A stretch of 64,000 nt of DNA from Solirubrobacterales bacterium (GTDB lineage: Bacteria; Actinomycetota; Thermoleophilia; Solirubrobacterales; Thermoleophilaceae). The stretch's first letter is position 1. Each line of letters starts with the position of its first letter. Below are positions 44,008 through 59,912 of the stretch, one piece after another. Under the pieces are notes generated by a model that saw only the letters and a list, made by a program, of their open reading frames with translations, had not been told where the DNA came from and did no database searches. Location of the stretch: the NCBI GenBank assembly GCA_038237685.1, contig JBBRYL010000001.1, positions 38,189 to 102,188 on the forward strand. Direction: 5' to 3'. A program made the position numbers and the translations under genes.

Positions 44008-44856
44008 CTAGGCCGGCACGAGCGTTGCGAACGGCGGCCGCACGATGACCGGGCTCGCGGCGGGCGGCCCGAGCAGCCGGCCGTCGTGGTGCAGACGGTC
44101 GGTAATCACCGCGAGCACCGACTCGGCCATCGGCCTGAGGGCTTCGAGCGACTGGTGCGCGTTGCGGCGCTCCCCGAGGTGGACCTGGGCGATCGCGTCC
44201 GCGCCGATCACGTCGCGCAGCTCGAGCAACATGGCCGCCTCGACTGAGTAACCGGTGGCGAACGGAATGCGCTGCAACAGCGCTCGCGACGCCGCGACCT
44301 CGCCTGCCAGTGGCTGGACGAGATCCGCGAGGTCGGGGTAGAAGGCCGCGAGCAGGGGCCGCGCTGTCAGCTGGCTCACGCGCCCGCCGCCGTTGGCCAC
44401 CTCGTGGCCGCCGACCACATATGGGCGGTTGTAGGTGGCCTTGACGAACTCCGCGCCTGAGTCGGTCAGGAGCGGCCCGAGCAGACCGGTGACGAACGCG
44501 GGTGAGAAGTCGCGCGTGTCGGCATCGATGTAGACCACGAGATCGCACCGCACCGCGGCCAGCGCCCGCCACATGGCGTCGCCCTTGCCGAGCACCGGCC
44601 CGGCCTCGGGTACCAGCGAGCCCTGCTGGAGTACCTCTGCCCCCGCCGCGAACGCCACCTCGACGGTGGCGTCCCGCGAGCCACCGTCGACCACCAGGAT
44701 TTGGTCCACGAGCTCGCCTAGCCCGCGAATCCGCTCCACGATGAAGCCCACGGTGTCGGCCACCTCGAGTGCGGGAAGCACCACCGAGACCGTCTGGCTC
44801 TTGCGCTGCAGCAACTGCGCCGGCGCGAAGTCGGAGTGGTCGAAGGTCGTGGTCAT
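44008..44856 (-). CDS. gpgS: Glucosyl-3-phosphoglycerate synthase (GT81)
   Basis: VSVVLPAL..., GKGDAMWRALAA, YIDADTRDF, GGGRVSQLTARPLL match mycobacterial GpgS blocks as I recall them. ATG at 44856 lies inside the repeat described in the findings. Confidence 0.8.
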   Translation of the reverse strand: MTTTFDHSDFAPAQLLQRKSQTVSVVLPALEVADTVGFIVERIRGLGELVDQILVVDGGSRDATVEVAFAAGAEVLQQGSLVPEAGPVLGKGDAMWRALAAVRCDLVVYIDADTRDFSPAFVTGLLGPLLTDSGAEFVKATYNRPYVVGGHEVANGGGRVSQLTARPLLAAFYPDLADLVQPLAGEVAASRALLQRIPFATGYSVEAAMLLELRDVIGADAIAQVHLGERRNAHQSLEALRPMAESVLAVITDRLHHDGRLLGPPAASPVIVRPPFATLVPA

Positions 44857-44943
44857 CGCGGGCCTACTATGGCTGTCCGCGTCGGTGACTCCCGAAACCC
44901 GTGGCCGTGGGAGTCCATTCAGCAGCGCGGCGAGGGCGAGCAG
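44844..44943. repeat. Dispersed repeat, copy 1 (about 96% identical to 59913-60010)
   Basis: Direct comparison of the two segments shows 2 substitutions and a 2-nt indel over about 100 nt. Contains hairpin GACTCCC-N15-GGGAGTC (44887-44915) and TACTAT (44865-44870). Confidence 0.85.
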
Positions 44944-45085
44944 ACGTCCGACGTGTCGGAGCGCCGCGTCGACCGTGGCGCTCAGCCCGGTGTGCCAAGC
45001 TCCTCCCGCGCGAGCGCCAGCACCTCTAACGCGATCCCAACCTTCGGACCTCACCCGCCAACCGGACGGGCGTCACGGTGACGGC

Positions 45086-46840
45086 ATGAGCGCGATTGCG
45101 GGTCTTCCCGCCTCACGATCCTGGCGAGCCCCCGCGGCATTGTCGTGGCGCTTCCTCGCGGGCAGCACGCTCGCTGCCCTGGGCGCCGGCGAGCTTGTGG
45201 CGATGCTGTTCCCGGCCACTGACCTTTCCCCGTTCGTACCATTGACCCCGGGCGTCGGCCCGTTCGCCCTGGCGAACGTGCTCGTCGTCTGCCTCGGCCT
45301 CTGTTCCCTGATCCTGAGCCACGGACTGTGGCGCGGACGGCGTCGGGCGCTGCACGCCGCAGTGCTGGTGTCGATCGTGATCGCCCTCGCCTCCGCGGCG
45401 GCGGGCTCCACCATCTGGACGGCGTTCGCGTCCCTGGCGACCGCCGCGCTGCTGGCCAATCGGGGCGCCTTCCAGCGCGGCAGCTACCGCCCGCCTGACC
45501 GCGCGACGATCGGCCTGGCGGCGCTGGCGGGCATCGCCGGCGCGGGGGTCTACGCACTGCTCGCGCTCCCGCCGCTGCTTGCCGACCGGGTGTCGGGGCT
45601 CGGAAGCGCCCTCGACCTGGCCGCCGCCCGGATCGCCGCAGGAACCTGGTGGCTGGCCTCCGCCGCCCCGCTGTCGCTCGCCCTCGACGCGCTCGTGGCG
45701 GTGGCGGTCGTCTCGGCCGCGGTCTATCTCTTCAAGCTCCTGCGCCCTGCGCCCGCGGCGGACGGCCACACAGAGGCCGAGCACATCAGGGCTCGCGCGA
45801 TTCTCGCCGACCACTGCACCGACTCGCTCGACCCGTTCGCGCTGCGCGAGGACAAGGCCTTTCACTTCCACGACGGTGCCTTCCTGGCATACCGCACGTT
45901 GCGGGGCACGGCCGTCGTGTCGGGAGACCCCGTTGGCCCGCCCGGCAGCGGCCCCGGGGTGATGGCAAGCTTCCTGCACTTTGCCGTCGAGCGCGACTGG
46001 GAGGTCGTCGTGACGGGCGCCTCCGGCGAGTGCCTGAACGACTACCGCGCGCTGGGCCTGAGGTCGCTGCACATCGGCGACGAAGCGGTCGTCGACCCGC
46101 GCGGATTCTCGCTCGAGGGGCGCGCGATACGCAAGATTCGCCAGTCGGTGAACCGGATCGACCGGCGCGGGTGGTCGATCGAGTGCGTGGAGGCGGACCG
46201 CCTGGACCCGGAACTGATCGAGGGCCTCGGGCGCATCGATCGGGAATGGCGCGCGGCCCAGCCGCGGCTGCAGGGCTTTGCGATGACGCTCGGCCGTCTC
46301 TGGGGCGCCTCGGAGGACGCCGACGCGCTGTATGTCGTGGCGCGCTCTCCAGAGGGGGCCGTCGAGTCGTTCATGCGCTTCTCGACCTTCCGCGGTGGCC
46401 TGTCGCTCGATGTGACGCGCCGGCTCGGCGACGAGCCCAACGGACTCAGCGAGGCGATGGTCGTGGCCACGCTGGGGTGGGCGCGTGACCGCAACCTGTC
46501 GGCCGTCAGCCTGAACTTCGCCGGCTTCGCCCACCTGATGGCGGCGGATGCGGTGCTCACCCGCGGCCAGCGGCTGATGCGCCGTGCCCTGCGAGCGACG
46601 CACGGCCGCTTCCAGCTCGAGCGCCTGATGAGCTTCTGCGCGAAGTTCGGGCCCAGCTGGAAACCGCGCTATCTCCTCTACGGCGGGCGCACTCGACTAC
46701 CGCGCGCAGGCTTGCGCGTCCTGCAGGCCGAGGCGTATGTCCGCCCGCCACGGAACCGGACTGCTCAGCCACACTGGCAGCCGGGGCCTGATCCCGTTTG
46801 CCCCGTGGTCGCCGGCCTGGCCCCTGGAGTCGGCCTGTGA
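45086..46840 (+). CDS. MprF-like aminoacyl-lipid synthase homologue (TM region + DUF2156/LPG-synthase C domain)
   Basis: About 6 N-terminal TM helices. C-domain blocks LREDKAFHFHDGAFLAYR...VSGDPVGP and FCAKFGPSWKPRYLLY. Confidence 0.8.
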   Translation: MSAIAGLPASRSWRAPAALSWRFLAGSTLAALGAGELVAMLFPATDLSPFVPLTPGVGPFALANVLVVCLGLCSLILSHGLWRGRRRALHAAVLVSIVIALASAAAGSTIWTAFASLATAALLANRGAFQRGSYRPPDRATIGLAALAGIAGAGVYALLALPPLLADRVSGLGSALDLAAARIAAGTWWLASAAPLSLALDALVAVAVVSAAVYLFKLLRPAPAADGHTEAEHIRARAILADHCTDSLDPFALREDKAFHFHDGAFLAYRTLRGTAVVSGDPVGPPGSGPGVMASFLHFAVERDWEVVVTGASGECLNDYRALGLRSLHIGDEAVVDPRGFSLEGRAIRKIRQSVNRIDRRGWSIECVEADRLDPELIEGLGRIDREWRAAQPRLQGFAMTLGRLWGASEDADALYVVARSPEGAVESFMRFSTFRGGLSLDVTRRLGDEPNGLSEAMVVATLGWARDRNLSAVSLNFAGFAHLMAADAVLTRGQRLMRRALRATHGRFQLERLMSFCAKFGPSWKPRYLLYGGRTRLPRAGLRVLQAEAYVRPPRNRTAQPHWQPGPDPVCPVVAGLAPGVGL

Positions 46841-47745
46841 GCGCGCTGGTTCTCGGGCTCGCCCTCGCCGTCGGAGCCGCGGTGGCGCTCAACGGCAGCT
46901 ATCTGCTCCAGCACGTAGGTGCGGCGGGGGCGCCCGCGATCAGCGCATTGCGGCCGATTGCGACCATACGCGGGCTGCTCGGCTCGCGGCTGTGGGCGAT
47001 TGGCGCAGCGGCGGGGATGCTTGGCTGGGGGATGCATGTGCTGGCCCTGTCAAAGGCTCCGCTCTCGCTGGTGCAGGCCTTCGTGGCCGGTGGCCTGGCG
47101 CTCACGGTGCCTCTCTCGGCGCGCATCCTTCACCGCAGATCGACTTCAGGCGAGAACCGCGCGGTGGCGGCGATGGCGCTGGGCCTCGCCGTACTCGCCA
47201 TCGGCACCGGCGGCGACGCCGCGACCGCCTTCGCGCCCGGGGCCCTCGTGGGCTATCTGGGCGGTGCGGCCGCGCTGGCAGCGATAGTCGCGCTGCTCCC
47301 GCTGGGATCGGGTCGCGCGAACGCACTCGCCCTCGCGGGCGGCACCCTCTACGGTGCGGCGGACGCGGCGATCAAGGCTCTCACGGGCGTGGCGACGCAC
47401 GGGGGGGTCATGGCCGTGCTCACCTCCCCCTGGCTCGCGATCGCAGTCCTGACCACGTGCGGTGCCTTCTTCTGCTTCCAGCGTGGGCTCCAGAGCGGAG
47501 CAGCGATCTCGGTCATCGCGCTCATGACAGCGGCGACAAACGTGGTGTCGATCGGCGCGGGCTTCGTGGTCTTTCACGACTCCTTGGGCGCCACTCCGCT
47601 GCTCGCGGCGCTGCACGCGGCCGCCTTCGGCCTGACCCTCCTGGGTGCGTGGCGGCTCGCCCCCGCGCAGGCGACGCTGCTCGCCGAGCCCGCCGACGGT
47701 CTCCCGTCGGCCAGGGGTATCGTGCCCGTTCCCAGCCACCGCTGA
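46837..47745 (+). CDS. Polytopic membrane protein (DMT-like, about 10 TM)
   Basis: GTGA overlap with the upstream MprF-like gene. Hydrophobic throughout. Confidence 0.65.
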   Translation: MSALVLGLALAVGAAVALNGSYLLQHVGAAGAPAISALRPIATIRGLLGSRLWAIGAAAGMLGWGMHVLALSKAPLSLVQAFVAGGLALTVPLSARILHRRSTSGENRAVAAMALGLAVLAIGTGGDAATAFAPGALVGYLGGAAALAAIVALLPLGSGRANALALAGGTLYGAADAAIKALTGVATHGGVMAVLTSPWLAIAVLTTCGAFFCFQRGLQSGAAISVIALMTAATNVVSIGAGFVVFHDSLGATPLLAALHAAAFGLTLLGAWRLAPAQATLLAEPADGLPSARGIVPVPSHR

Positions 47746-47850
47746 AACAGCGCGTGGGTGCCTCTCACTTCCAGCTCACCGTCTCACAGTCCGATCATCG
47801 GCCGTTCCTATGGTCCGTGGCGAATAGATCCGACGAAAAGGAGACCCAGG

Positions 47851-48252
47851 ATGTTCGACATGACCAAGATCAAGAGGTCCGGAATCGTTCTCGGTGCGGC
47901 AGCCGTGACCGCCCTCGGCGTGGGTGGCGTAGCGGTCGCTCAGAATGCCGGGCAGGCACAGAAGCCGGCCCAGGTGAAGAAGGCCGCGGAGCCCAAGGGC
48001 CCCGACCGGGACAACATCCAGAGCGGCGACCAGACCACGCCCGACGTGAAGGGGTCTGCGAGCGAGGCTCCGGGAACCGAGACCAAGGACGGCCCTGGCA
48101 AGGCCGAGGCTCCGGGAACCGAGACCAAGGACGGCCCTGGCAAGGCCGAGGCTCCCGGCAGCGAGACCAAGGCCGACAGCGATGGCCCCGGTGGCCACGC
48201 CGACGAGCCCGGCAACTCCAACGCCGACCACCAGTTCCAGGGCAATGAGTAG
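47851..48252 (+). CDS. Secreted low-complexity protein with tandem EAPGTETKDGPGKA repeats
   Basis: RBS AAGGAGA 8 nt upstream of the ATG. Signal peptide. A 42-bp in-frame tandem repeat. Confidence 0.65.
   Translation: MFDMTKIKRSGIVLGAAAVTALGVGGVAVAQNAGQAQKPAQVKKAAEPKGPDRDNIQSGDQTTPDVKGSASEAPGTETKDGPGKAEAPGTETKDGPGKAEAPGSETKADSDGPGGHADEPGNSNADHQFQGNE
48064..48175 (+). repeat. 42-bp in-frame tandem repeat, about 2.6 copies
   Basis: GAGGCTCCGGGAACCGAGACCAAGGACGGCCCTGGCAAGGCC occurs twice identically, followed by a diverged partial copy. Confidence 0.85.
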
Positions 48253-48309
48253 CGTCTAGATAAATCCGTCGGACACGACGCATAGCCGCGAAAGCGGCAG
48301 GCGAGCACA

Positions 48310-48335
48310 GATGGCCCCGCTCCGGCGGGGCCATC
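48310..48335 (+). terminator. Stem-loop, candidate intrinsic terminator after the secreted repeat-protein gene
   Basis: Perfect 11-bp stem GATGGCCCCGC-TCCG-GCGGGGCCATC about 58 nt after the stop. No U-tract, as is common in high-GC genomes. Confidence 0.55.
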
Positions 48336-48829
48336 TCGCGTCGCAGGGCTCTGTCGCGTGTGCACTCAGTCTTCAGCTCTGAATGTGACAATGCAGAACC
48401 TCACAAGACCCGCGACTGGCTTGGTTGTGCTGCTGGCACTGACGCTTGGCGCCACGGCTTGCGGCGGATCCTCACCACCCCCTGACGGCCAGGGAGCCCT
48501 CACGCCGATTCGAGCGGTACCTTCCCCCGCCCCGGGCGGGTAGCCGTGCTGGTGCTCGAGGAACAGGAGCTATCGCCAGGTGATCGGCAGCCCCAGGGCG
48601 CCCTGCTTGAACGGGCTCGCGCCATCAGCCTCAGCAGCGATCCTGCCGAGCTGCGGCGCCGCGGCCGCGCGATCGAATGACCGAGCTCGTGACCGGGAGC
48701 GGCGCCACGCGCAGCCATTTCTAACCGCAGGTAGGACGGCGCGAGTTCCGCTGCCGCCGCTGAGCCGCGCCGCGCTCGGCCGCCGAGTCCAGTCGGCCAG
48801 GGACCGCAACTTTGAGGCCACCGAGCTAT

Positions 48830-48990
48830 TACTACCGGCATAACACGTGTAAAGAGCCGAGTTCCCGGGCCGCCAGGCCGGGGGATCGGGGGACCCACGC
48901 GGCCCAAGGCCGCAGGGGCGAATCGCAGCCGGAGAGCTGCGTAGCGCACTTCCAGCGCGAGCCCGACAGCTAACCCCGAAGGCCATAAGG
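48830..48990 (+). promoter_or_regulatory. Cyclic-di-AMP riboswitch (ydaO/yuaA-type leader) upstream of the M23 peptidase
   Basis: Conserved blocks in order: CGGGGGACCCA (~48888-48898), hairpin GCGGCC-CAA-GGCCGC, GGGGCGAAUC (~48916-48925), hairpin GCAGC-N6-GCUGC, GUAGCG, CCCGACAGCUAACCCCGAAGG (~48963-48983). The SD and GTG follow. The 5' boundary is approximate. Confidence 0.75.
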
Positions 48991-49008
48991 AAGAGGAGAG
49001 CCCGTCCC

Positions 49009-50568
49009 GTGATCCCCGCCCAGCGAGACCTTGCCCTACCCGAGCCCTGGGAGAAGTCCCTCGAACGATCCCGCCGCAAGCGGATACTCATTCCCGAGGT
49101 GCGAAGGAGGCAGAACCGCCGTCGCCGCGCCTCCGCGGCGCTCAGCACGCTGATGGTGGCCGGGCCGGCGAGCCAGGTCTTCGCCGCGGCCACGGCCAGC
49201 GGGGCGGCCGCCGCACCCGGACCGAGCTCGTCCTCGACGCGGGCGATTGGCCAGGTCCCGACGGGCACGTTCTTCCGCCTCGGGAGCACGGGTGAGGCGG
49301 TCAGGGCGATCCAGGCCCGGCTCGGCGTGCCGGCCGATGGCATGTACGGCGTGGCCACCGAGCGCGCGCTGCGTGCCTTCCAGGCCCGCAGCGGCCTGGA
49401 AGTCGACGGCGTCGTCGGGCCCGTAACCTGGACGAGGCTGATGGGGCTGGGCAAGGCCGCCCTGCGTGCCGGCGCCGGCGAGGGCGAGGTCGCGGTGATC
49501 GTGCGTGAGCGCCCGACCGCCCCGGGTGACGTGGCGCGGGCGCCTGCATCGAAGCAGCCGGCGTCCACGAGCGTCGCCGGCCTGGGCCCATCCGACGAGC
49601 ACGCGCCCGATGCGGTCCAGCGCAAGGCCGACCAGACCCCGACGGCACCCGTCGCCCCCACGCCGCGGACGCGCCCCGTGGCAATTCCGGCGCCTGCTCC
49701 CGACGTCGGCTCCGGGGCGTGCGGCGAGCTGCGACTCTCCGCGCCGGTCAAGGGAGTCAGGACGTCGCCGTTCGGCCCGCGCGGCGGGCGCAACCACGAC
49801 GGCATCGACATCGCGGCCCCGACCGGCACGCCGATCCACGCCGCCGAGTGCGGCATTGTCAGCTTCAGCGGCGTACAGGGCGGCTACGGGAACATGGTCT
49901 GCGTCGACCACTCGAGCGCGCTGCAGACGTGCTACGCCCACATGTCCCGCACAGCCGCGAGCAACGGCCAGACCGTGCGCAAGGGCCAGGTGATCGGCTA
50001 CGTCGGCACCACGGGCCACTCGACCGGCCCCCACGTGCATTTCGAGACGAGGGTCAACGGCCGGGCTCGCGATCCCGAGCCCTACCTGCGCGGTGGGGCG
50101 GTCCCGGGCGAGCCGAAGGCGCGGCAAGCCGCGGTGAGGGGCGCGAGCAGGGCGGCCCTCGCTCCGGCGAGGACCCGGGCCGTCTCGTCGCGCGCCCCGT
50201 CTGTAATAACCGCGCGCGCCCCACGGGCCACCACAGCCCGGCCGGCTGCGGTTGCCCAGCCGGCTCCGGTGGCCGGCCCCGCCCGACCGGCTCAGTCGGC
50301 TCGGCCCGCTCCTGTGCCCCAGCCCGCTCCTGTGCCCCAGCCCGCTCCTGTGGCTCAGCCCGCTCCGGTAGCCGAACCGGCACCGGCAGCTCAGCCCGCT
50401 CCTGTGGCTCAGCCGGCTCCGGTAGCCGAACCGGCACCTGCAGCTCAGCCGGCTCCGTCATCGCCTCAGCTGACGGCCGCCGATCCGCAAGCGGCTCCGC
50501 CGGCACCGTCGGCGGGGACTGCCCCCGCCCTCGCGCCCGTCGAAGCGCCCCCTGTCGGAGCCAACTGA
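49009..50568 (+). CDS. M23 peptidase with a peptidoglycan-binding domain and a Pro/Ala-rich tail
   Basis: PG_binding_1-like (GEAVRAIQARLG...DGVVGPVTW). M23 motifs HDGIDI and GPHVHFE. SD GGAAGAGGAGAG upstream. Confidence 0.85.
   Translation: MIPAQRDLALPEPWEKSLERSRRKRILIPEVRRRQNRRRRASAALSTLMVAGPASQVFAAATASGAAAAPGPSSSSTRAIGQVPTGTFFRLGSTGEAVRAIQARLGVPADGMYGVATERALRAFQARSGLEVDGVVGPVTWTRLMGLGKAALRAGAGEGEVAVIVRERPTAPGDVARAPASKQPASTSVAGLGPSDEHAPDAVQRKADQTPTAPVAPTPRTRPVAIPAPAPDVGSGACGELRLSAPVKGVRTSPFGPRGGRNHDGIDIAAPTGTPIHAAECGIVSFSGVQGGYGNMVCVDHSSALQTCYAHMSRTAASNGQTVRKGQVIGYVGTTGHSTGPHVHFETRVNGRARDPEPYLRGGAVPGEPKARQAAVRGASRAALAPARTRAVSSRAPSVITARAPRATTARPAAVAQPAPVAGPARPAQSARPAPVPQPAPVPQPAPVAQPAPVAEPAPAAQPAPVAQPAPVAEPAPAAQPAPSSPQLTAADPQAAPPAPSAGTAPALAPVEAPPVGAN
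50305..50455 (+). repeat. In-frame Pro/Ala-rich tandem repeats (18-bp unit twice, then 54-bp unit twice)
   Basis: CCCGCTCCTGTGCCCCAG occurs twice, then a 54-bp unit occurs twice with 3 substitutions. These encode the QPAPVP/QPAPVAEPAPAA repeats of the M23 protein tail. Confidence 0.8.
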
Positions 50569-50636
50569 AGGCGGGCTGGGCGCCCGGCTAACGCGACGCT
50601 AACTCGACGCCAACCGGGCGAAGTGACTCCGCCGCC

Positions 50637-51914
50637 ATGGTGGGGGACATGAAGCAGCTCGCCTCGATCGATTCCCCGCCGATTGCACCCCGCCCTCCGG
50701 CACAGCCGGCGGTGCGGGATGCACCTGGCTCCGCGCTCGACCATCCAGACCTCTTGCCCGGCCTCTCGATTGTGATGGCCTGCCGCGACGACGCCGCGAC
50801 GGTCGCCGCGGCCATTCGCAACGCGGCCGACGCCGCGAGCCGCGTCAGCTATCGCCACGAGATCCTCGTAGTTGACGACGGCAGCACGGACCTGAGCGCC
50901 GAGCGAGCGGCGCCGTTCGTGACCGGTGACGGACACGTGCAGCTGCTGCTGCACCCCCACCCGCGTGGGTCCGGCGAAGCGCTGCGCGCGGGAATCGCGG
51001 TCGCCAGGAATCCGTGGGTGGTCCTGACCGACGCCGCTTTCGAGCTCGACCTCTGCCAGCTGGAGGACTTCCTTGCCCTCGCCCCGGATCACGACCTGCT
51101 GATCGGCTGGAGGGTGCTGCGGCGGGCACCGGTCCGCGCGCGCTTGCGCGCGGCCGTGTGGAGCGGGCTCGTGAGCCGGCGACTGGGCGTTCCGGTACGC
51201 GACGTGGACTGTCCGCTCAAGCTCGTCCGGCGTGATCTGCTCGAGCGGGTCACGCTCACGAGGCGTGGCTCGACCCTCGGCGCGGAGCTCCTGGCGCGAG
51301 CGTGCGCTCAGGGCGCGCGGGTCACCGAGGTCGCGGTTCGCCAGCGCCCAGACGTCCCCGCCGCGGCAGTCACGAGCATCGGCCCTCACCTCGGAGCACG
51401 CAACCTCGGCGCGCTGGCGGCCATGTCGCGGCCCCGGCAGCGCCGCTCGTCTGCATCACCGCGTCCGCGGCGCCGGCCTTGGCGCGCGCCGGGTGCGGCG
51501 GCCGTGGCGGTCGCGGCGGTCTTCGCGGGCCTGGGCTGGCTCTACCTGCTGTTCAAGGCCGGGCTCGTCGGGTGGGGACCTGATCTAGGCGGCGCGCTGC
51601 CGCTCCAGCAGCTCGCCGGTAGTGCCGACCAACCGGTCGTACGCCTCGCCGCTGCGTGGCTGCCCGCCGGGGCGATTGTCGGCGTTGTGCTCGCGCGGCT
51701 CACCTCGTGGCGCCACCCCGGTGTCGTCGCCGGCGTGATCGCGGCGCTGCTGCTCACGCTGACGGGCGCCGCGTCGGACGCGGTTGCCAACTCACAGGCC
51801 CTGGCTCCCCACCTTCTGGCCCAGTTGGGCCACCCCGGCCTGATCGCCTCCGTGCTTCTGATGGCCGCCGCTGTCGCGGTGGCGTCACACTTGACCAGAG
51901 CGCGCGGGCAATGA
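50637..51914 (+). CDS. GT2 glycosyltransferase fused to a C-terminal multi-TM domain
   Basis: LVVDDGSTD plus LTDAAFE (DxD-like). The C-terminal roughly 150 aa is hydrophobic. Confidence 0.8.
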   Translation: MVGDMKQLASIDSPPIAPRPPAQPAVRDAPGSALDHPDLLPGLSIVMACRDDAATVAAAIRNAADAASRVSYRHEILVVDDGSTDLSAERAAPFVTGDGHVQLLLHPHPRGSGEALRAGIAVARNPWVVLTDAAFELDLCQLEDFLALAPDHDLLIGWRVLRRAPVRARLRAAVWSGLVSRRLGVPVRDVDCPLKLVRRDLLERVTLTRRGSTLGAELLARACAQGARVTEVAVRQRPDVPAAAVTSIGPHLGARNLGALAAMSRPRQRRSSASPRPRRRPWRAPGAAAVAVAAVFAGLGWLYLLFKAGLVGWGPDLGGALPLQQLAGSADQPVVRLAAAWLPAGAIVGVVLARLTSWRHPGVVAGVIAALLLTLTGAASDAVANSQALAPHLLAQLGHPGLIASVLLMAAAVAVASHLTRARGQ

Positions 51915-52822
51915 AGCGCCTGCTCGCGGTTGGACTCGTCTGCTGGCTGGTGGCCGGGGCAGCGGGCGCCGGAGCCTACGTACACGACTACTCGCTCTAC
52001 CGGGGCTTTCCGCCGCCCCAGACTCCCGCGGGCGTGAAGCAGGGTCGACTCGTCACCAAGCACTTCTACTCCCACGCGCTGCACCAGCGGCGCAGCTACC
52101 TGGCCTACCTGCCGCCGGGATACGCGTCCGCCGCAGCCCACGGCAAGCGCTTTCCCGTGCTCTACCTGCTGCACGCCCCGCCGGGGCGCCCCATGGGCTA
52201 CGTGCTCGCCGGGGCGATCAACGCCCGCGCCGACGTGCTGATCTCCCACAAGCGCATCAAGCCGTTCATCATCGTGATGCCCGACGGCAGGAGCGGAACC
52301 TTCGGAAACGACACGGAGTGGGCAAACGCCCGCGCGGGACGCTACGAGAGCTTCGTGCTCGACACCGTGCGCGCGGTCGATGCGCGCTTCTCGACCCAGG
52401 CAACCCGCGGGCACCGAGCGATCGGGGGCCTGTCGGCTGGGGCCTACGGAGCGACCAACATCGCGCTGCACAACCCAAAGGCCTTTAGCGTTTTCGAAAG
52501 CTGGTCGGGTTACTTCACCCAGACGCCCACCTATGCCTTCAAGGGAACCTCGACCGCCGCGCTGCGAGCCAACAGCCCGAGCAGCTATGTGGCCTCGCTG
52601 GGCCCCACCCTGCACCGCCTTCCGATCCGCGCCTACCTCTACCAGGGTCGCCAGGACGGCAACCCCATTCCGCAGATGCAGTCGTTCGCCCGCCAGCTGC
52701 GGGGCGCCGGCGGCCGCGTGCGCTACAGCGTCTATCCGGGCAGCCACAGCTGGAAGCTGTGGCGCGCCCAGCTTCCGCACATGCTGGAGTTCGCCAGCCA
52801 CTCGTTCGGCAAGACGCGATGA
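51911..52822 (+). CDS. Membrane-anchored esterase (PF00756-like putative esterase family)
   Basis: ATGA overlap upstream. FPVLYLLH, nucleophile elbow GLSAG, and a conserved His region. Confidence 0.8.
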   Translation: MKRLLAVGLVCWLVAGAAGAGAYVHDYSLYRGFPPPQTPAGVKQGRLVTKHFYSHALHQRRSYLAYLPPGYASAAAHGKRFPVLYLLHAPPGRPMGYVLAGAINARADVLISHKRIKPFIIVMPDGRSGTFGNDTEWANARAGRYESFVLDTVRAVDARFSTQATRGHRAIGGLSAGAYGATNIALHNPKAFSVFESWSGYFTQTPTYAFKGTSTAALRANSPSSYVASLGPTLHRLPIRAYLYQGRQDGNPIPQMQSFARQLRGAGGRVRYSVYPGSHSWKLWRAQLPHMLEFASHSFGKTR

Positions 52823-53754
52823 CGGCGGGCCGCGCCGCGCGCCTGCGCCGTCTCACACTGGCGCTGGTGCTCGCCGGCTGGACGCTGGGAGGCGTAGCGG
52901 GCGCCGGCGCCTACGTGCATGACTACTCCACCTACCGCGGCTATCCACCTCCGCGGCATCCGCCGGGCGTGGCGCCCGGCCGCCTGCAGACCGTCCGCTT
53001 CCACTCGGCCGCGCTGGGCCGCGAGCGCTCCTATCTCGTCTCGCTGCCCCCGGGCTATGAGCGGGGCGCCGCGCACGGCCGCCGCTTTCCGGTCCTGTAC
53101 CTGCTCCACGGGACCTCGGGCTCCCCCCGGCTGCTCAACCGCGTGGGCGGAGTGCAGGTGGCGCTCGACGTATTGGCCGGAAAGCCCACAGGTGGGAAGT
53201 TCCTGGTGGTGATGGTCGACGGTCGCGACGGCACGCCTCGCAGCGACACCGAGTGGGCCAACACGCGCCACGGCCGCTACGAGAACCTGGTGCTCGACAC
53301 CGTGCGCGCCGTCGATGCGCGCTTCTCCACGGTCCAGACTCCCGAGGCGCGCGCAATCGGTGGCCTGTCCGAGGGGGGCTACGGCGCCCTGAACATCGCG
53401 CTGCACCATCTCGACACCTTCTCGACGGTCGAGAGCTGGTCGGGCTACTTCACCCAGACGGCGAGCGGTCCCTTCCGGGGTGCCTCGGGGGCCCAGCTGC
53501 GGGCCAACAGCCCCGCCTCGTACGCCGGCGGCCTGGGCCCGAGGTTGCGGCGGGCGCCGCTGCATGTCTTCCTCTACGGGGGCAATCGTGATCGCGACAC
53601 GACGCCCATGCCGGGCTTTGCCGCCGGTCTGCGCGCGGCCGGCGCGGACGTGACCTACCGCGTCTATCCCGGCGGTCACGACTGGAGGCTGTGGCGCGCC
53701 CAGGTGCCACAGATGCTGCGCTACGCCGGTGCCCAGATCGGTGCCCGCCCGTGA
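52819..53754 (+). CDS. Membrane-anchored esterase, tandem paralogue of the preceding gene
   Basis: ATGA overlap. Collinear with the previous protein (YVHDYS.YRG.PPP, FPVLYLLH, GLSEG, ESWSGYFTQT). Confidence 0.8.
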   Translation: MTAGRAARLRRLTLALVLAGWTLGGVAGAGAYVHDYSTYRGYPPPRHPPGVAPGRLQTVRFHSAALGRERSYLVSLPPGYERGAAHGRRFPVLYLLHGTSGSPRLLNRVGGVQVALDVLAGKPTGGKFLVVMVDGRDGTPRSDTEWANTRHGRYENLVLDTVRAVDARFSTVQTPEARAIGGLSEGGYGALNIALHHLDTFSTVESWSGYFTQTASGPFRGASGAQLRANSPASYAGGLGPRLRRAPLHVFLYGGNRDRDTTPMPGFAAGLRAAGADVTYRVYPGGHDWRLWRAQVPQMLRYAGAQIGARP

Positions 53755-53763
53755 TCGCGCACC

Positions 53764-54522
53764 GTGAGATCCACCGGGCTGTTGCGGCCGCCCGCGCCGG
53801 CTGCGACAGTCCGTCCGCCCGTGTGCGCTGAGACCACCCTCGACATCCTCGTCGTCGACGACGACTCGGACCTGCGCGAGCTCCTCTCGCGCTCGTTCAC
53901 ACGCGAGGGGCATCGAGTCGTGACCGTCGCCGATGGACGTGGCGCCGTCGACCGCGCCAGCACCGGCCACTTCGACATCGTGCTGCTCGACGTCGGCCTA
54001 GGCGCCGGCCCCGACGGCTACGAGGTGTGCCGCACCCTTCGCGCCCGCCGCAACGTCGTTCCGATCGTGATGCTCACAGCGCTGGACAGCGAGGCCGATG
54101 CGGTGCTGGGCCTGGAAGCCGGTGCCGACGACTATGTAACGAAGCCCTTCGGCCCCGCCGAGCTGCGCAGCCGCATCCGCGCGGTGTTACGCCGCGCCGG
54201 GCCGAGGGCCCTGGGGGAAGACGTGCTGGCCGCGGGGCCGATCGTGCTGGATCGCAGCAGGCGGCGGGTGACCGTCCAAGGAGCGGACGCCGACCTGACC
54301 TTCTCCGAGTTCGAGCTGCTGCAGGCCCTGATGGCCGAGCCCGGCAGGGTGTTCAGCCGCGAGGACCTGCTCCGCGCGATCTGGGACGAGGGCGCCTACC
54401 GCGACCCGCGTGGGGTCGACGTACACGTGAGGCACCTACGGCAGAAGCTCGAGGCGGAGCCCGAACGGCCCCAGATGATCCAGACCGTGCGGGGCGCCGG
54501 CTACCGGCTGAGCTCCGGCTGA
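53764..54522 (+). CDS. OmpR/PhoB-family response regulator
   Basis: ILVVDDDSDLR, LLDVGLG, KPF, TVRGAGY. The start may be the internal GTG at 53821. Confidence 0.85.
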   Translation: MRSTGLLRPPAPAATVRPPVCAETTLDILVVDDDSDLRELLSRSFTREGHRVVTVADGRGAVDRASTGHFDIVLLDVGLGAGPDGYEVCRTLRARRNVVPIVMLTALDSEADAVLGLEAGADDYVTKPFGPAELRSRIRAVLRRAGPRALGEDVLAAGPIVLDRSRRRVTVQGADADLTFSEFELLQALMAEPGRVFSREDLLRAIWDEGAYRDPRGVDVHVRHLRQKLEAEPERPQMIQTVRGAGYRLSSG

Positions 54523-54526
54523 AGGG

Positions 54527-55951
54527 GTGGCTGGCCCAAGCGCGCTGGCGGGTCTGCGTCCGCGTCTGATCGGCGCGTTGGCTGCCACCAGCGCAATCAC
54601 GCTGGTGGTAGCGGCCGTGGCGCTGCTGTCTCCGCTCGAGCAACGGCTGCGAACCGAGCGGATCGACTCCCTCACCGCCGACTTGAAGGCCGACGGGTCG
54701 GCCTTCGAGGAGCTTCCGCGAGCGGAGGTCCGGGCCGGTGGGAAGCGGATCGGCGGCCTGGCCCGCGCCCTGCGCCGGCGCACCGGCGCGGACATCGCGG
54801 TTGTCGGTGGCGATGGTCAGACGCTGGTGGCCACCGATCCCGGGGAGGCCCGCAGAGCGGGAGACGTTGCACGCGCGCTGCGCACCGGCCGCGTGGTGAC
54901 CCAGACGGCGAGCGACGAGGGCGACCCCGAGGTTCGTGTGGCGGTGCCCGTGCGCTCGCGCGTGGGCCCGATCGTGATCTCCGCCCAGAAGCCCCTGGAC
55001 GCGGCCCAGCCGGCGGTGGGAGTGGTCGAGCGCGCCTTGGTGGAGGCCGCGCTGATAGCCCTGGTGATCGCGACTCTGATTGGCGTCTTCATCACCACCC
55101 GCCTGATCAGGCGCCTGCGCCTCCTTCGCGACACGGCGCTCCGGGTTGCGGAGCTGGGGCCGTCGGTCGAGGTGCGTCCCGACACGGCCCGCGACGAGGT
55201 GGGGGATCTGACGCGCGCGCTGGCCACGATGCAGGGCCGCCTCCACGAACAGGAGCAGGCGCGGCGCGCCTTCGTGTCCACTGCTTCCCACGAGCTGCGA
55301 ACGCCGCTCACCTCGTTGCAGCTCGTGCTCGGGCTCCTGGGCGAGGACCTGCGTAGTGGCACCATCGACTTGGACGAGGCACGCCGCCAGGTGACCCGCG
55401 CCGAGGCCCAGACGGAGAACCTGTCCCAGCTGGCCGCCGACCTGCTCGATCTGAGCCGGATCGACGCCGGGATCCCGATGCGACACGAGGGTGTGGAGCT
55501 TCGAGATCTCTGCGAGTCCGTGATCGCCGAGTTCAGCGGGCGCCTGAAGGAGACCAGCCAGGCGGTCGAGCTCGTGGCCCCGGACGCCTGCGTGGTCATG
55601 GCCGACCCTTCGGGCACGGCGAGGGTCGTCCGCCTCCTGCTGGACAACGCGCTCCGGTTCTCGCCACCCGATCGGCCCGTGACGGTCTCCCTGACCCGGG
55701 TGGGCGAGGGCGGGCGCGTGACCGTCTCTGACCATGGGCCCGGCGTGCCCGCCACCGAGCACGAGGTGGTGTTCGAGCGCTTCCGCCGGGGAACCCAGAC
55801 GGGCGGCGAGGGCGGCTTCGGTCTGGGCCTGGCGATCGGTCGCGAGCTCGCCCGGCGCATGGGCGGCGGGCTGCAGCTCGATCCGGTGGAGCACGGCGCG
55901 TCCTTCACGCTCGAGCTGGGCCTCGCCGAGGAAGGCAGGGACGCCGACTAG
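54527..55951 (+). CDS. Sensor histidine kinase
   Basis: H-box ASHELRTPL and HATPase_c G-boxes (GFGLGLAI). Confidence 0.9.
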   Translation: MAGPSALAGLRPRLIGALAATSAITLVVAAVALLSPLEQRLRTERIDSLTADLKADGSAFEELPRAEVRAGGKRIGGLARALRRRTGADIAVVGGDGQTLVATDPGEARRAGDVARALRTGRVVTQTASDEGDPEVRVAVPVRSRVGPIVISAQKPLDAAQPAVGVVERALVEAALIALVIATLIGVFITTRLIRRLRLLRDTALRVAELGPSVEVRPDTARDEVGDLTRALATMQGRLHEQEQARRAFVSTASHELRTPLTSLQLVLGLLGEDLRSGTIDLDEARRQVTRAEAQTENLSQLAADLLDLSRIDAGIPMRHEGVELRDLCESVIAEFSGRLKETSQAVELVAPDACVVMADPSGTARVVRLLLDNALRFSPPDRPVTVSLTRVGEGGRVTVSDHGPGVPATEHEVVFERFRRGTQTGGEGGFGLGLAIGRELARRMGGGLQLDPVEHGASFTLELGLAEEGRDAD

Positions 55952-56789
55952 CGTCGGCGGTCGAGCACCTTCTCGACCTCGCGGGCGATCACGCGGTAGC
56001 CCGCCGTGTTGGTGTGGTCGTCGTCCTTGTCCGAGCAGCTCCACGTCCAACGGCACACCCGTGCGACCGCGAGAGGGATGCGACCGTAGGGCTTGAGCTG
56101 GACATAGCGGTCCAGCTGGTCGGTCGCAAAGGCGTCCTCCACGTTCGCGATCGGAACGTGGGCCTTCCGTAGACCCGGTCGAGCGTAGCGTTGATGCGCC
56201 GTTCGACGGAGACCGACCGGCGCGCCAGCAGCCGGCCGGCCCGGCCGTGCACCCAGCTGCCTAGAAAGGAGTTGTAGTAGTTGATGCCGACGAGCGGTAG
56301 GTGGCCGCGGCCTGCTGCTCGCAGGCGCCGGATCACCTCTGGGAGGCTCTGGCGCAGCGAGACGAGGGCGCGATCCACGCAGCCGCCGTCGAAGCCGTTT
56401 CCGCGGTGGCAGCGCTCGACCTCGTTCGCACCGATGTCGAGCGTGACAAGTGCGGTTCGCCGGCTCTTTATGACTTCCTCGGCCCGCTCGAGCTGGCTCG
56501 GCCCCGGACGGTCCCTGTGGATCAGGCTCGCGCCGGTCTCGCCGCCTCGGCCGAGCTTGACGAGGACCAGGTCTTGGATCTGCGCGGCACGCTGATGCCA
56601 GATCGCCTCGGCGTAGCCCTGGTCGGAGGGCCTGTCGGGCTGAATGCCGGCCGCGAGGGAGTCACCCAGAGCGAGGTAGCGCGGCGCGTCGGGCGCCGGG
56701 CTCGCGGTGCCCCCGCCTCTCGCTCCGCCTACAACTGCTCCCAGGATCACCGCGAGCAGCACGGCTGCCGGATGGCGCACGCGTCGCAC
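55948..56789 (-). pseudogene. SGNH/GDSL hydrolase, interrupted by a frameshift near 56143-56172
   Basis: ORF 55989-56789 has a signal peptide plus block I ALGDSLAAG. Block V DHTNTAGY lies in ORF 55948-56142 in a different frame. The two read continuously (…DRVYG / RKAHVPIANVEDAF…) if 1 nt is corrected. Confidence 0.7.
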
Positions 56790-56926
56790 TGCCCTGACCG
56801 TAGCGAAGCGGTTGGGTCAGTGGATGCAGGGGAAGCCCGGGCGGCCGCGAGCCGGCTGGAATTCCTCCGTCAGGGCACAAGGGGACCGCGTAGGCGACCA
56901 GATCTTGCTGGGCGGAAGCCATCGCG

Positions 56927-58795
56927 TCAGGCCGCTCTCGGCGCCAGATCGGCAACGGGCTTGAACTTCAGATCTCTCCGGAGTGCTCCGGGCAGACGGG
57001 GCTTTGGCAGCTGGCCCTCGGCCCACAGCGCGGCGAGCGCCGCTCGTGGCAGCCCCAGCCGCCCCTCGTACAGCAGGTAACGCGGCTGCCAGCGCGGCCC
57101 GAGCTTGGCGTTGAACGAGTACAGGCTCTCGATCTGGAAGAACGGGTCCGCGAGCGCCACCAGGCGTCCGAGCAGCCGCTCGGCCCGCGTGGCGGGAGCA
57201 TGTACCAGACGGGCGAAGGCGGCGAAGTTCAGCGAGAGCTCCTCCACGCCACGCGCTCCGAACAGCTCGATCGCGCGTACCAACATGAACTCGGTGACCC
57301 CGTTCGGCGCGGCGCAGTCGCGGCGCATCGCGCTCAGCGAGGCGCGCGGGCTGCCGTAGGAGGGCACGAAGTGCAAAAAGCCGCGGATCCTGCCGTCCTC
57401 GTCGCGGGCGATCAGCACGGTCGAGTCGCCCAGGTACCGGCCACGCAGGCCGTCCATGGCCATCGAGAAGCCGCGCTCGGGCTCTCCGCCCAGCCAGCGC
57501 TCGGAGATCTCCTCGAGCACTGCGAGCTCCGCCGGCCCGACCTCGCTCAGCGTGCTCAGCTCGGTGGTGTAGCCGGCCTTCACGAGGCGAGTCACTGACT
57601 GGCGCACCTTGCGGATCGCCCGTCCCTCGAGCGAGAAGGCGCCGGTATCCACGATCGCCTCGTCGCCGATGTAGAGCGCGCGCAACCCGGCGTCGGCGGC
57701 GAGCTCACGCAGAAGCTCGCCGCCGCCAACGACTCCGAGCCGCAGGCCGCGCTCCTCCGCGAACGAGCAGACCTCTGACAACAGGCTCGGGATCGCCTCG
57801 GGCGGACCGACCGGGTCTCCGGAGCACAGGAGCACCCCGTTCTCCACTCGGTAGGAGAGGAAGGCCCGCCCGTCGCCGCTGATGAAGTGCTGGAGGTCTC
57901 CCCGGAGCTTGAAGAAGCTGAGGGTGTCCGAGCCGTTGGCCTGCACAAGCCGACGCGCCGCGCAACGCTGCGCTTCCGGCGGTGGCCGGCTCGGGGCGGC
58001 CAGGGGCCGGAAGGCCAGGCGAGCGACTGCAAGAGCCACGAGGAACCCCACGCCGACCGTCACGGTCGGCGCCGTCCACAGGTCGGCCACCAGCGCGGCA
58101 AGGCCGGCCGCCAGGGCAGTCGTGGCAGGGGCGAGCAGAGAGCGCAGGGCCGCGCGGGGCGCCAAGCGCTCGTGGGCTACGCAGAAGGCGTCCCGACCCC
58201 AGGTCAGCACGCCGGCGAGGGCCCAGCTCGCAACTGCCTCCTCGACGTCGAGACCCTTCAGCAGGTTGAGTGCGCCCACGCCCACAAGCAGCACGATCGC
58301 GAGCTGCAGGGCCCTGCGCCGGCGGCGAGCCAGGTAGGGCGCGAGCACGAGCAGCGCCAAGCCGGCCGGCAGCGCCAACGCATGCGCGAGCAGCGGGGCG
58401 TGGACTCCGGTGATTCGAGTGAGCACGGCGAGGCGGTCGTGGGCCCCCGGAGTGAGCGCAGAGATCACGTTGAACGCTCCCACCGCTCCCGTGAGCCAGC
58501 CGGCGGCCGCGGGCAGGGACTCGCCGCGGTAGGCCCGCCGCAGCGCGGCCGGAGCGCGGTGAATGCCAAGCCGCCATGCTGCCGTGTCCCGCCGGGACGG
58601 AACCAGGTCGTGCCAGTCCTTGGCCACGAGCCACGCCCCCGTCAGCGCGAGCGCGGAGGCGAGCAGGGCGGGAGCATCCATCGCCACGGCTGCCACCGCG
58701 GCGACCAGCGTGGCCAGCCCCAGGTGCCACTCGTGCACGCGAAGGCCGGCCACGAAGCATCGTGGACCGAGCGCATGGCTCTCGACTCGGATCAT
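56927..58795 (-). CDS. MprF-like aminoacyl-lipid synthase homologue (second paralogue)
   Basis: N-terminal TM region. DUF2156 blocks FFKLRGDLQHF...LLCSGDPVGP and FNAKLGPRWQPRYLLY. Confidence 0.8.
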   Translation of the reverse strand: MIRVESHALGPRCFVAGLRVHEWHLGLATLVAAVAAVAMDAPALLASALALTGAWLVAKDWHDLVPSRRDTAAWRLGIHRAPAALRRAYRGESLPAAAGWLTGAVGAFNVISALTPGAHDRLAVLTRITGVHAPLLAHALALPAGLALLVLAPYLARRRRRALQLAIVLLVGVGALNLLKGLDVEEAVASWALAGVLTWGRDAFCVAHERLAPRAALRSLLAPATTALAAGLAALVADLWTAPTVTVGVGFLVALAVARLAFRPLAAPSRPPPEAQRCAARRLVQANGSDTLSFFKLRGDLQHFISGDGRAFLSYRVENGVLLCSGDPVGPPEAIPSLLSEVCSFAEERGLRLGVVGGGELLRELAADAGLRALYIGDEAIVDTGAFSLEGRAIRKVRQSVTRLVKAGYTTELSTLSEVGPAELAVLEEISERWLGGEPERGFSMAMDGLRGRYLGDSTVLIARDEDGRIRGFLHFVPSYGSPRASLSAMRRDCAAPNGVTEFMLVRAIELFGARGVEELSLNFAAFARLVHAPATRAERLLGRLVALADPFFQIESLYSFNAKLGPRWQPRYLLYEGRLGLPRAALAALWAEGQLPKPRLPGALRRDLKFKPVADLAPRAA

Positions 58796-59784
58796 GGGGA
58801 GGGTGAGGGCTTGATGAGGCCGGCCAGCAGCGGCGTGGAGGACGCCCCCGCATGCGCCAGCGCGGGCAGTGCGAAGTTGGCCTCGATCGTCCGCAACAGG
58901 GCGTAGTGATTCGCGGGGACCGCGCTGGTGGCGCCCTTCCTGGCTGCGCCGCCGGCCGCGATCAACGCCACTCGTCCTCCGCCCTTGACTCCGTTGACTC
59001 CGCGGGTGTCCTTGCGCGCGCCTTCGTCCCAGGTCAGGTACAACACCCCGTGCGGGCCCAATGCGTGAAGCACCTTGGGCACGAGCCGGGAGGCGTAGCG
59101 ATCACTCTGGCGGAGCGAGCCGTTGTGGCCGTCGTGGCGCACGCCGGGAGCGATCCACGAGAACCGCGGAAGCTGGCCCCGGCGCAGATCGCGGTGCAGC
59201 TTTTTGAACCCGACGATCTTGGACCTTGCGGTGGCGCTCGTGGTGACCGCATCGTGGTAGACGAACGGGTTGTAGTGGGGGTTGTAGGTGGAGGTGATAC
59301 CCCCGGGACGGGTGTTGGACGTCAGGCCCTCGAAGTAGGCCTTCCAGGACACGCCGGCCTTGTCGAGCTGCCCGACCAGGTTCTGACCCGGCGTGTCGCA
59401 GCTCGTGCAGTTGCGGGTGATCTCGCCCGTGGAGCCCCCTGTGAGCGCGACGTAGTTGGGCAGGGACGGGTGCGACACCGCGTAGTAGCGGGTGGCAAGC
59501 GCGTTCTGTCGAGCGAGGTGGTTCAGATACGGCGCCTTGCGGTTGCCGATCACCTGCCCGAAGCTCTTGTTCTCGAGCGCGAGCACGGCCACCTTCGAAG
59601 GGTGGGGAAACCGTCCGCTCGGGGCGGCCAGCGCGGACGCGGGGCCGGGGCCTGGTCCCGCTGCGGGCAACCCGGCGGCGCCGACCAGTGCCACGCCGAG
59701 CGCGCCCACGGCCGCGACCGAAAGCCCGCGTCCCCTTCCCAGGAAGCGGCGGTAGGGGCGATTCGGTTCGTCTCGGCAGTTCAT
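58792..59784 (-). CDS. Tat-secreted phosphoesterase (acid phosphatase / phospholipase C family)
   Basis: Twin-arginine motif YRRFLGR plus an h-region. Phosphoesterase block SHPSLPNYVALTGG. 4-nt overlap with the downstream MprF-like gene. ATG 59784 is preceded by GGTGAGG. Confidence 0.8.
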   Translation of the reverse strand: MNCRDEPNRPYRRFLGRGRGLSVAAVGALGVALVGAAGLPAAGPGPGPASALAAPSGRFPHPSKVAVLALENKSFGQVIGNRKAPYLNHLARQNALATRYYAVSHPSLPNYVALTGGSTGEITRNCTSCDTPGQNLVGQLDKAGVSWKAYFEGLTSNTRPGGITSTYNPHYNPFVYHDAVTTSATARSKIVGFKKLHRDLRRGQLPRFSWIAPGVRHDGHNGSLRQSDRYASRLVPKVLHALGPHGVLYLTWDEGARKDTRGVNGVKGGGRVALIAAGGAARKGATSAVPANHYALLRTIEANFALPALAHAGASSTPLLAGLIKPSPSP

Positions 59785-59912
59785 GGACCTCACCCTCACA
59801 CCGGACCTGTTGCGGCGGACGGGGGCTGCGTTGGGATGCTGTTAGAGGTGGGCGCGCTGCGCCTCGAAGGCTTCGTCGTCGTGGCTCTCGAGCTTCGAGC
59901 TGTGGGAGCGCG

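Follow-up and report, generated by a model that had tools for sequence, protein, structure and literature searches.

The target-site duplications that transposons leave behind are typically 2–14 bp long. Much longer direct repeats flank engineered Dup-Ins, in which the loss rate of 100–210 bp duplications did not exceed background (Nasvall et al. 2017, PMC5389514). In symmetric bacterial promoters, positions 2 and 6 of two opposed -10 hexamers pair and the divergent transcription starts lie 18 bp apart, a start spacing of 18–19 bp being the commonest in both proteobacteria and actinobacteria (Warman et al., bioRxiv 10.1101/2020.01.31.928960). Within Mycobacterium, TANNNT hexamers are found 7–12 bp upstream of transcription starts, mRNAs are defined as leaderless when transcription begins ≤5 bp from the start codon, and divergent promoters are often closely juxtaposed (Cortes et al. 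2013, PMC3898074). The subject of this article is a direct repeat of about 100 bp that occurs twice in a 64-kb stretch of contig JBBRYL010000001.1 from a Solirubrobacterales bacterium (hereafter the window), one copy at the start of gpgS, the gene for glucosyl-3-phosphoglycerate synthase, and the other at the start of a gene for an MrfA-type DEAH helicase. The two copies are very probably a duplicated target site, i.e. the junction between gpgS and the helicase gene, together with the promoter that the two would share, duplicated around a 15-kb insertion. The repeat is an evolutionary footprint and not a new RNA, gene or mobile element.

The window was compared with 82 relatives, namely two Solirubrobacterales metagenome-assembled genomes (MAGs) obtained by scanning a genome collection with GpgS as the query and 80 metagenome loci obtained with the helicase as the query. 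Window proteins were mapped onto the loci of all 82 in order to read the spacing between gpgS and helicase and the presence of genes from the inserted block (the island). Genes were assigned by Pfam and NCBIfam profiles, and RNA families by an Rfam scan of the whole window at gathering thresholds. Two comparators, both from other samples, represent sister strains: L089, a JGI metagenome contig with 96 % nt identity to the window over 44410–48705, spans gpgS, copy 1 of the repeat and the first MprF-like gene of the island (MprF1), and L084, a Logan contig with ~96 % nt identity, spans a phosphoesterase gene, copy 2 and the helicase gene.

The duplicated gpgS–helicase junction

The copies, at 44844–44943 (100 nt) and 59913–60010 (98 nt), are separated by two substitutions and a 2-nt indel. 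Their coordinates and shared orientation, first given in a preliminary description made from the letters of the window, are borne out by a local alignment that scores 94.5 against a shuffle maximum of 21.5 and by a repeat-derived 35-mer that occurs exactly twice in the 64 kb, against an expectation of 0 from shuffles. The A/T difference at 44921 and the indel (~44901–44904) are also as described; the C/T difference lies at 44880, one base from the 44879 originally given. The GAGCGCCGC ‘echo’ once reported to the right of the repeat does not survive, its local alignment being at chance level against shuffles (p ~0.38). Similarity to the left is marginal in the same kind of comparison (p = 0.035) and is treated as chance because the relative L087 shows the same stretch to be native to the island. 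The duplicated unit consists of 13 nt of gpgS (ATGACCACGACCT, minus strand), a gap of 22 nt and 63 nt of helicase coding sequence, and, in alignment with the relative L001, the window sequence leftwards from copy 1 is gpgS and that rightwards from copy 2 is the helicase gene. The earlier account had correctly placed the gpgS ATG at 44856 on the minus strand with its first four codons inside the repeat, a plus-strand ATG at 44869, and the TACTAT hexamer that both copies contain (Table 1).

The name gpgS, proposed from the sequence, is confirmed by the NCBIfam equivalog at 319.5 bits against a cutoff of 262. For the helicase, whose N-terminus was aligned with 82 orthologues, the frame is that of the GTG at 59948 (V-S-V-T-P-E-T-L-P-W-E-S-I-L...) and not that of the ATG inside TACTATG. 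On the minus strand of the left flank lie a histidine kinase gene, a HAD phosphatase gene and gpgS, and on the right flank the helicase gene is followed by M23-like and unknown genes. Both flanks occur in this order in L001, where gpgS and the helicase gene are divergent and 21 nt apart (aa identities to the window of 94 % for the helicase, 86 % for HAD and 77 % for GpgS). The gpgS–helicase gap is 20–23 nt in 24 loci, or in 25 once the longer helicase N-terminus of L004 is allowed for, and none of the 82 relatives has an island gene within 10 kb of the helicase. It follows that the adjacency of gpgS and helicase is the ancestral state and the 15-kb block an insertion peculiar to the lineage of the window. 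On the two sides of that insertion, copy 1 keeps 84 nt upstream of the predicted gpgS transcription start, and copy 2 keeps 33 nt upstream of the predicted helicase start.

The non-coding gap of the 24 aligned junctions contains a near-invariant CGTACTAT, with the helicase GTG 8 nt further on. TACTAT is ≥90 % conserved over these junctions, whose gpgS identity is 52–77 %, and it stands at the same distance before the helicase GTG in 32 loci, HAD-neighboured loci included; in the window, it occurs only twice, both times within the repeat. The opposite strand reads CATAGT, 9 nt before the gpgS start, and positions 2 and 6 of the two opposed hexamers base-pair in both copies. With hexamer-to-start-codon spacings of 8 nt (helicase) and 9 nt (gpgS), the 22-nt gap is too short to hold a leader. 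Based on this conservation and geometry, we infer a compact symmetric bidirectional promoter for two near-leaderless genes. Transcription starts predicted at 2–3 nt from each start codon would account for the conserved gap of 20–23 nt, and the upstream promoter DNA of each gene would accordingly sit in the first codons of the other. Copy 2 of L084 (window 59934–59941) has TACCAT as its helicase-side hexamer and a spacer shortened by 1 nt; the core apparently tolerates a change at position 4, T1, A2 and T6 being kept. At the relative L030 (~2860–2966), the HAD gene lies only ~105 nt from the helicase start, and the first gpgS-like codons and the TACTAT core are kept; gpgS seems to have been lost there by deletion while its 5' stub, the predicted upstream promoter DNA of the helicase, stayed. 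A RecA-independent DNA-damage promoter motif that resembles TGTCGGTG, in the first codons of the helicase, was considered and rejected, as no TANNNT stands at the needed spacing and the motif is not conserved in relatives.

The ‘spare’ promoter halves, i.e. the helicase end of copy 1 and the gpgS end of copy 2, are relics. At each of the three points where the copies differ, the derived state is that of the helicase stub in copy 1, with copy 2, L084, L089 and L001 keeping the other state, and in L089 the copy 1 stub is intact and gives a 59-codon open reading frame (ORF) of 21 helicase codons and 38 unrelated ones. Of the residues of the 27-codon ORF that starts from the gpgS relic of copy 2, 5/27 are changed in L084. 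The left breakpoint in L089 and the right breakpoint in L084 are identical to those of the window, so that the structure predates the ~4 % split of these ~96 % identical sister strains; L003 also covers gpgS into copy 1. The copies differ from each other by ~3–4 %, and the repeat region differs from that of L001 by ~17 %, indicating that the event is young relative to the clade.

Table 1. Features of the repeat, its flanking genes and the inserted block (window coordinates; all -10 cores and transcription starts are predicted)
Feature	Coordinates	Strand	Details
gpgS (glucosyl-3-phosphoglycerate synthase)	44008–44856	-	Served by copy 1; NF010496 equivalog; orthologue in L001 and 30 other loci
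Repeat copy 1	44844–44943		100 nt: gpgS codons 1–4 plus 1 nt, 22-nt gap with -10 core, decaying stub of helicase codons 1–21
Copy 1 -10 core (predicted)	44865–44870; 44871–44866	+; -	TACTAT (+) overlapping CATAGT (-); predicted transcription starts ~44877 (+) and ~44859 (-)
Helicase 5' relic in copy 1	44879–44943	+	GTG to GCG (44880), +2 nt frameshift (~44901–44904), CTG to CAG (44921)
Inserted block	44944–59912		14,969 bp of envelope-lipid genes; not at this junction in 82 relatives; homologous cluster in other contexts
82-nt segment	44944–45025		Between copy 1 and the first base homologous to the L088 cluster
CTAAC-N6-CCAAC site, MprF1	45026–45041	+	
MprF-like 1	45086–46840	+	LPG_synthase_C domain; first gene at the left end of the island, inward-reading
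CTAAC-N6-CCAAC site, GT2	50588–50614	+	
Phosphoesterase and MprF-like 2 operon	56927–59799	-	Right end of the island, inward-reading
CTAAC-N6-CCAAC site, phosphoesterase–MprF2	59830–59845	-	
Repeat copy 2	59913–60010		98 nt: 13-nt gpgS-start relic, 22-nt gap with -10 core, functional helicase codons 1–21
gpgS-start relic in copy 2	59913–59925	-	ATGACCACGACCT; opens a 27-codon ORF into island DNA
Copy 2 -10 core (predicted)	59934–59939; 59940–59935	+; -	TACTAT (+) overlapping CATAGT (-); predicted transcription starts ~59946 (+) and ~59928 (-)
MrfA-type DEAH helicase	59948–62215	+	GTG start; served by copy 2; DEAD, Helicase_C, winged-helix (WHD) and MrfA Zn-binding domains

The inserted block, its edges and its relatives

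From left to right, the island carries an MprF-like gene (MprF1, +), a DMT-like gene, a gene for an unknown protein, a c-di-AMP riboswitch, and genes for an M23/peptidoglycan-binding peptidase, a GT2 glycosyltransferase, two tandem esterases, an OmpR-type response regulator, a histidine kinase, a GDSL lipase (-), a second MprF-like protein (MprF2, -) and a phosphoesterase (-). It is present in a single copy in the window, and in relatives the cluster is rearranged and chromosomal. The preliminary remark that nothing else in the window suggests mobile DNA holds: Pfam and NCBIfam profiles detected no integrase or transposase among the island genes, there is no gap large enough to hide one, the 64 kb contain no tRNA or tmRNA gene, and GC content is 0.70–0.75 both inside and outside the block, giving no compositional island signal. 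Exact-protein look-ups for MprF2 and for protein P0121 of the source contig returned no match.

The edges can be read from relatives that have parts of the cluster in other surroundings. In L088 (MprF1 89 % aa, 86 % nt), homology to the window begins at 45026 and extends rightwards, a histidine kinase gene and others lying to the left, and L087 (phosphoesterase–MprF2, 81 % nt) is without the repeat or the helicase upstream, its homology fading at ~59870; these limits therefore place the boundaries of the island at 44944–45026 on the left and ~59870–59912 on the right. The 82-nt segment next to copy 1 is common to L089 and hence part of the same event. The whole cluster, rearranged and with other flanks, occurs in L085/L090 at 66–78 % nt. 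Left of the cluster, L088 and L090 have orthologous histidine kinases (66–77 % aa), which suggests a native cluster context that the copy in the window does not have.

A second motif belongs to the island itself. CTAAC-N6-CCAAC has three exact occurrences against 0.32 expected, all in the island and all 40–45 nt upstream of operon starts; the GT2 site has three half-sites 11 bp apart (GCTAAC-N5-GCTAAC-N5-GCCAAC). The motif is kept upstream of the homologous genes in L084, L087, L088, L089, L090 and L091, and it may be a candidate site for the OmpR-type response regulator of the island (53764–54522). As transposon ends, the motifs, which are the only inverted similarity near the two ends, were rejected, since they lie 54–82 nt inside the ends of the block and also precede an internal operon and homologues elsewhere.

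Several further observations concern the content of the cluster. The riboswitch (48845–48999, +) is of the ydaO type (RF00379, 61.6 bits against a gathering threshold of 38) and lies directly upstream of the M23/peptidoglycan-binding peptidase gene (49009–50568), whose Pro/Ala-rich C-terminus is encoded by nine in-frame 18-nt units in tandem (50218–50457); another in-frame tandem repeat, at 48063–48188, is built of three units of 42 nt, two of which are identical. The gap before the riboswitch contains a phosphoesterase-like fragment of ~110 nt (48510–48622, +), with 72–75 % nt identity to 59513–59621 and to L085 and 56 % over 39 aa in L089, which is probably a relic of an earlier rearrangement within the cluster. 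The MprF-like genes (45086–46840, +, and 56927–58795, -) are old paralogues, 39–41 % identical in aa and inverted at the two ends of the island, and the esterase genes (51656–52822 and 52759–53754) are tandem paralogues with 56 % aa identity. L085, L090 and L091 have the same gene set in another order. The L084 strain is without ~1.3 kb of MprF-like 2 (window 57035–58338) and a further ~70 nt near 56850–56920; the gene appears to be dispensable or in the course of being lost there.

Insertions at the same junction in other lineages

A systematic search of each locus for a second copy of its helicase-proximal junction picked out L010. This locus has an unrelated insert of 6.1 kb between the HAD and helicase genes, encoding a PAS histidine kinase, a LuxR-type regulator, a type III polyketide synthase, a sulfotransferase and ThiC, and the insert is flanked by an older, decayed direct duplication (3813–3925 and 9878–10010; 113–133 nt). 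The duplicated unit is made up of ~73 nt of the HAD 5' end, the gap with TACTAT or TACCAT, and ~37 nt of the helicase 5' end, and its alignment scores 45.5 against a shuffle maximum of 20.5. In L002, a 2.5-kb insert with genes for methylaspartate ammonia-lyase and an amidase lies between gpgS and helicase. Here, CGCGTACTAT is found on both sides of the insert, the 20.8 kb contain no TACTAT hexamers other than these two (locus coordinates 7469 and 9980), and the start of the first inserted gene (TACTAT-N7-ATG) takes the usual place of the helicase start. Mobility genes are missing from all three cargoes, and ~80 relatives have no cargo gene, from whichever event, within 10 kb of the helicase; a local origin of the inserts, considered as an alternative, was ruled out on the latter count.

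Insertion at this promoter has occurred in three independent lineages, pointing either to strong filtering by selection or to a mechanism specific to the site. An insertion without duplication of the core would sever at least one gene from its promoter, which would explain why a duplication is seen, and selection is in our view the reason for it. A bolder proposal, which we regard as possible but doubtful, is that the predicted doubly leaderless promoter is a recurrent landing site for unrelated, non-mobile blocks, with duplication of 10–130 bp of the core, through a specific process and not through mere selection on random insertions. It draws on at least three independent events, of 15 kb in the lineage of the window, 6.1 kb in L010 and 2.5 kb in L002. 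If correct, candidate processes would include staggered breaks at a stably opened or bidirectionally transcribed core followed by end-joining fill-in, or replication template switching, and the duplication would also hand the incoming genes a ready-made promoter.

Competing explanations and known systems

Among the explanations raised at the outset, a recent partial duplication of the helicase 5' region came closest; it was incomplete in that the unit is the whole gpgS/helicase junction and flanks a 15-kb insertion. The course of events that best fits the locus begins with an ancestor in which gpgS (-) and the helicase gene (+) were divergent and ~22 nt apart, on either side of one predicted TACTAT/CATAGT bidirectional core with starts so close to each start codon that both mRNAs would be essentially leaderless. 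In the lineage of the window, a 15-kb envelope-lipid cluster, found elsewhere in relatives, then came between the two genes, and ~98 bp of junction sequence, from 13 nt inside gpgS through the gap to 63 nt inside the helicase gene, is now on both sides. Copy 1 provides the start codon and predicted promoter of gpgS, and its helicase stub is in decay; copy 2 provides those of the helicase gene, and its gpgS stub is 13 nt long. The physical route may have been a one-step duplicative insertion or a duplication followed by loss; candidates for a single step would be a staggered break with fill-in, template switching, or a Dup-In-like bridging of sister chromosomes.

Several points weigh against a duplicated target site. 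The copies within the window differ by three changes and copy 2 differs between two strains by six, so that there may have been some gene conversion between the copies of the window. The duplication in L002 is only 10–14 nt long, making convergence possible there. No source was found for the 82 nt at 44944–45025, no donor site for the 15-kb block within the window, and no clear microhomology at either breakpoint. All comparators are MAGs or metagenome contigs. Additionally, the argument for promoter activity, leaderless starts and read-in transcription is one of conservation and geometry, and an E. coli-type promoter scan around both copies was empty, although such a scan is uninformative at 71 % GC; an E. 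coli-type terminator scan around both copies likewise gave no match and is equally uninformative at that GC content.

Of the rivals, the one that survives best reaches the same end state in at least two steps, by a large tandem duplication joined at the island end and the repeat start and then trimmed by losses, in the manner of SNAP. Duplication with random loss rearranges bacterial gene order experimentally (Brandis and Hughes 2022, PMC9016547), needs no special enzyme, and would leave selection alone to fix breakpoints that spare both promoters. Nevertheless, it is unlikely here. With cargo that is not local in ~80 relatives, a large duplication and several clean deletions would be required, the window has neither a second island copy nor partial duplicates of helicase-side genes, and the route is less parsimonious because the cargoes are not local.

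The direct repeats might instead be the attL and attR of an integrative genomic island, formed by a site-specific recombinase at an att site of ~100 bp. They do bound a 15-kb block that is absent here in relatives, whose empty site has one copy of the repeat. However, no integrase, excisionase, transposase or conjugation gene, nor a gap for one, exists in the block, and in place of a tRNA or tmRNA target, of which the 64 kb have none, the site combines a promoter with the junction of two gene starts. In relatives the block has other flanks, as an ordinary cluster of the chromosome, and here it has the same GC content as its surroundings; the repeat is host junction sequence whose extent fits gene starts and not a recombinase core, and the cargoes of L010 and L002 are unrelated. 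We consider this explanation very improbable.

Equally hard to credit is a functional cis-regulatory RNA, structured 5' leader or small protein gene placed at two loci and co-regulating lipid, compatible-solute and helicase genes. The preliminary description had entertained the structured leader and had noted a 7-bp stem, a 70-aa ORF and the proximity of both copies to MprF-like genes. The stem can be drawn, and the minimum free energy (MFE) structure of copy 1 uses it; that of copy 2 does not. Both strands of both copies and the L001 orthologue were folded alongside shuffled sequence, and none of them, L001 included, was the more stable (z = +0.1 to +0.85). What 24 relatives keep is only the P-W-E codons and not the stem, and the Rfam scan of the window, whose sole match is the riboswitch at 48845–48999, is empty at the repeat. 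A conserved stem or structured leader is not borne out by these results. The 70-aa ORF also fails as a gene, since its frame, start and stop differ between the window and the 96 % identical L089; its N-terminus does resemble that of the helicase, as noted, but the likeness arises only because the +2 insertion of copy 1 shifts the frame. This ORF (70/81 aa) and the 27-aa ORF are by-products of the junction. As for the MprF-like genes, both of their operons have CACCTCTAAC-N3-ATCCCAAC ~45 nt before the ATG, as has the internal GT2 operon of the island, and the same motif precedes the homologous genes in L087, L088, L090 and L091, all without the repeat. The proposed MprF link falls away, as adjacency only follows the layout of the island and the operons read inward with an upstream motif of their own. 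What stands of the shared promoter once suggested for lipid, solute and helicase genes is a predicted bidirectional -10 core in each copy; it is not a device that ties in the MprF genes, the core being ancestral to gpgS and the helicase gene. The outward-facing spare halves may now transcribe into the two inward-reading operons of the island, the terminator scan having placed no terminator-like site in between.

Gene conversion or ectopic copying of ~100 bp between long-standing gpgS–MprF1 and phosphoesterase–helicase loci, with no insertion, would suit the high identity, the sharp edges, and the slightly greater likeness of the copies in the window to each other than of copy 2 across strains. 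It needs both adjacencies to be ancestral, however, and is scarcely tenable when 25 relatives have gpgS and helicase 20–23 nt apart and none has the island there, and when each copy is continuous with one ancestral flank; relatives thus show the two flanks of this supposed tract once adjacent. Lastly, an assembly artefact (a chimeric contig, or a collapsed or duplicated read overlap), conceivable for a metagenome-type contig and anticipated in the preliminary description as a source of the identity, can be discarded for practical purposes, given that the junctions were independently assembled with identical breakpoints in the ~4 % divergent L089 (left) and L084 (right), from other samples, and that L003 covers gpgS into copy 1.

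Taken as a duplicated target site, the repeat no longer counts as a candidate RNA, small gene or mobile element, and the local annotation is corrected, with the helicase start at the GTG and the 70/81-aa and 27-aa ORFs removed as by-products of the junction. The locus would also be a natural example of a constraint, in which a leaderless gene pair on a bidirectional core with a predicted offset of ~18 bp admits new DNA only if the core is duplicated. In addition, the two predicted spare halves, firing outward, face the MprF-like operons and could allow co-expression of the new envelope-lipid genes with gpgS or the helicase gene.

Compared with described systems, the locus is somewhat unusual in the length of its duplication without mobility machinery and in its recurrence at the same promoter in three lineages. 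Transposon target-site duplications are likewise direct repeats of host sequence that immediately flank the insert and are represented once at the empty site; here, however, they are 98–100 bp long, with no transposase and no terminal inverted repeats at the ends, in single copy, and the inserted genes form an ordinary operon cluster of the chromosome. Islands bounded by attL and attR share direct repeats of tens to hundreds of bp around a block absent from relatives, whereas this block has no integrase, tRNA target or composition shift and is chromosomal elsewhere in relatives. SNAP (Brandis and Hughes 2022, PMC9016547) could also give a relocated block bounded by remnants of duplicated sequence, but there is no trace here of a large intermediate duplication and the inserted genes are not local in relatives. 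With regard to the promoter, the opposed -10 hexamers with 2/6 pairing and the predicted starts ~18 bp apart, in a class whose start spacing spans 7–25 bp, match the symmetric promoters of Warman et al. (bioRxiv 10.1101/2020.01.31.928960), differing in that both sides appear to be leaderless coding genes, each with its promoter DNA inside the coding sequence of the other; the present finding is the duplication of such a promoter and not the promoter per se. A hexamer 8–9 nt before ATG or GTG, too close for a Shine–Dalgarno sequence, is shared with the leaderless TANNNT promoters of Cortes et al. (2013, PMC3898074), although the starts here are predicted and the organism belongs to another class (Thermoleophilia/Solirubrobacterales). 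Finally, the Dup-Ins of Nasvall et al. (2017, PMC5389514) have the same architecture, with an insert at the join of a direct target duplication and each copy continuous with one ancestral flank. Those were engineered with lambda Red and designed homologies, whereas the present case is natural and involves a 15-kb chromosomal cluster, and the persistence of its 100-bp repeat fits the Dup-In experiments, because duplications that short were not efficiently lost there by homologous recombination.

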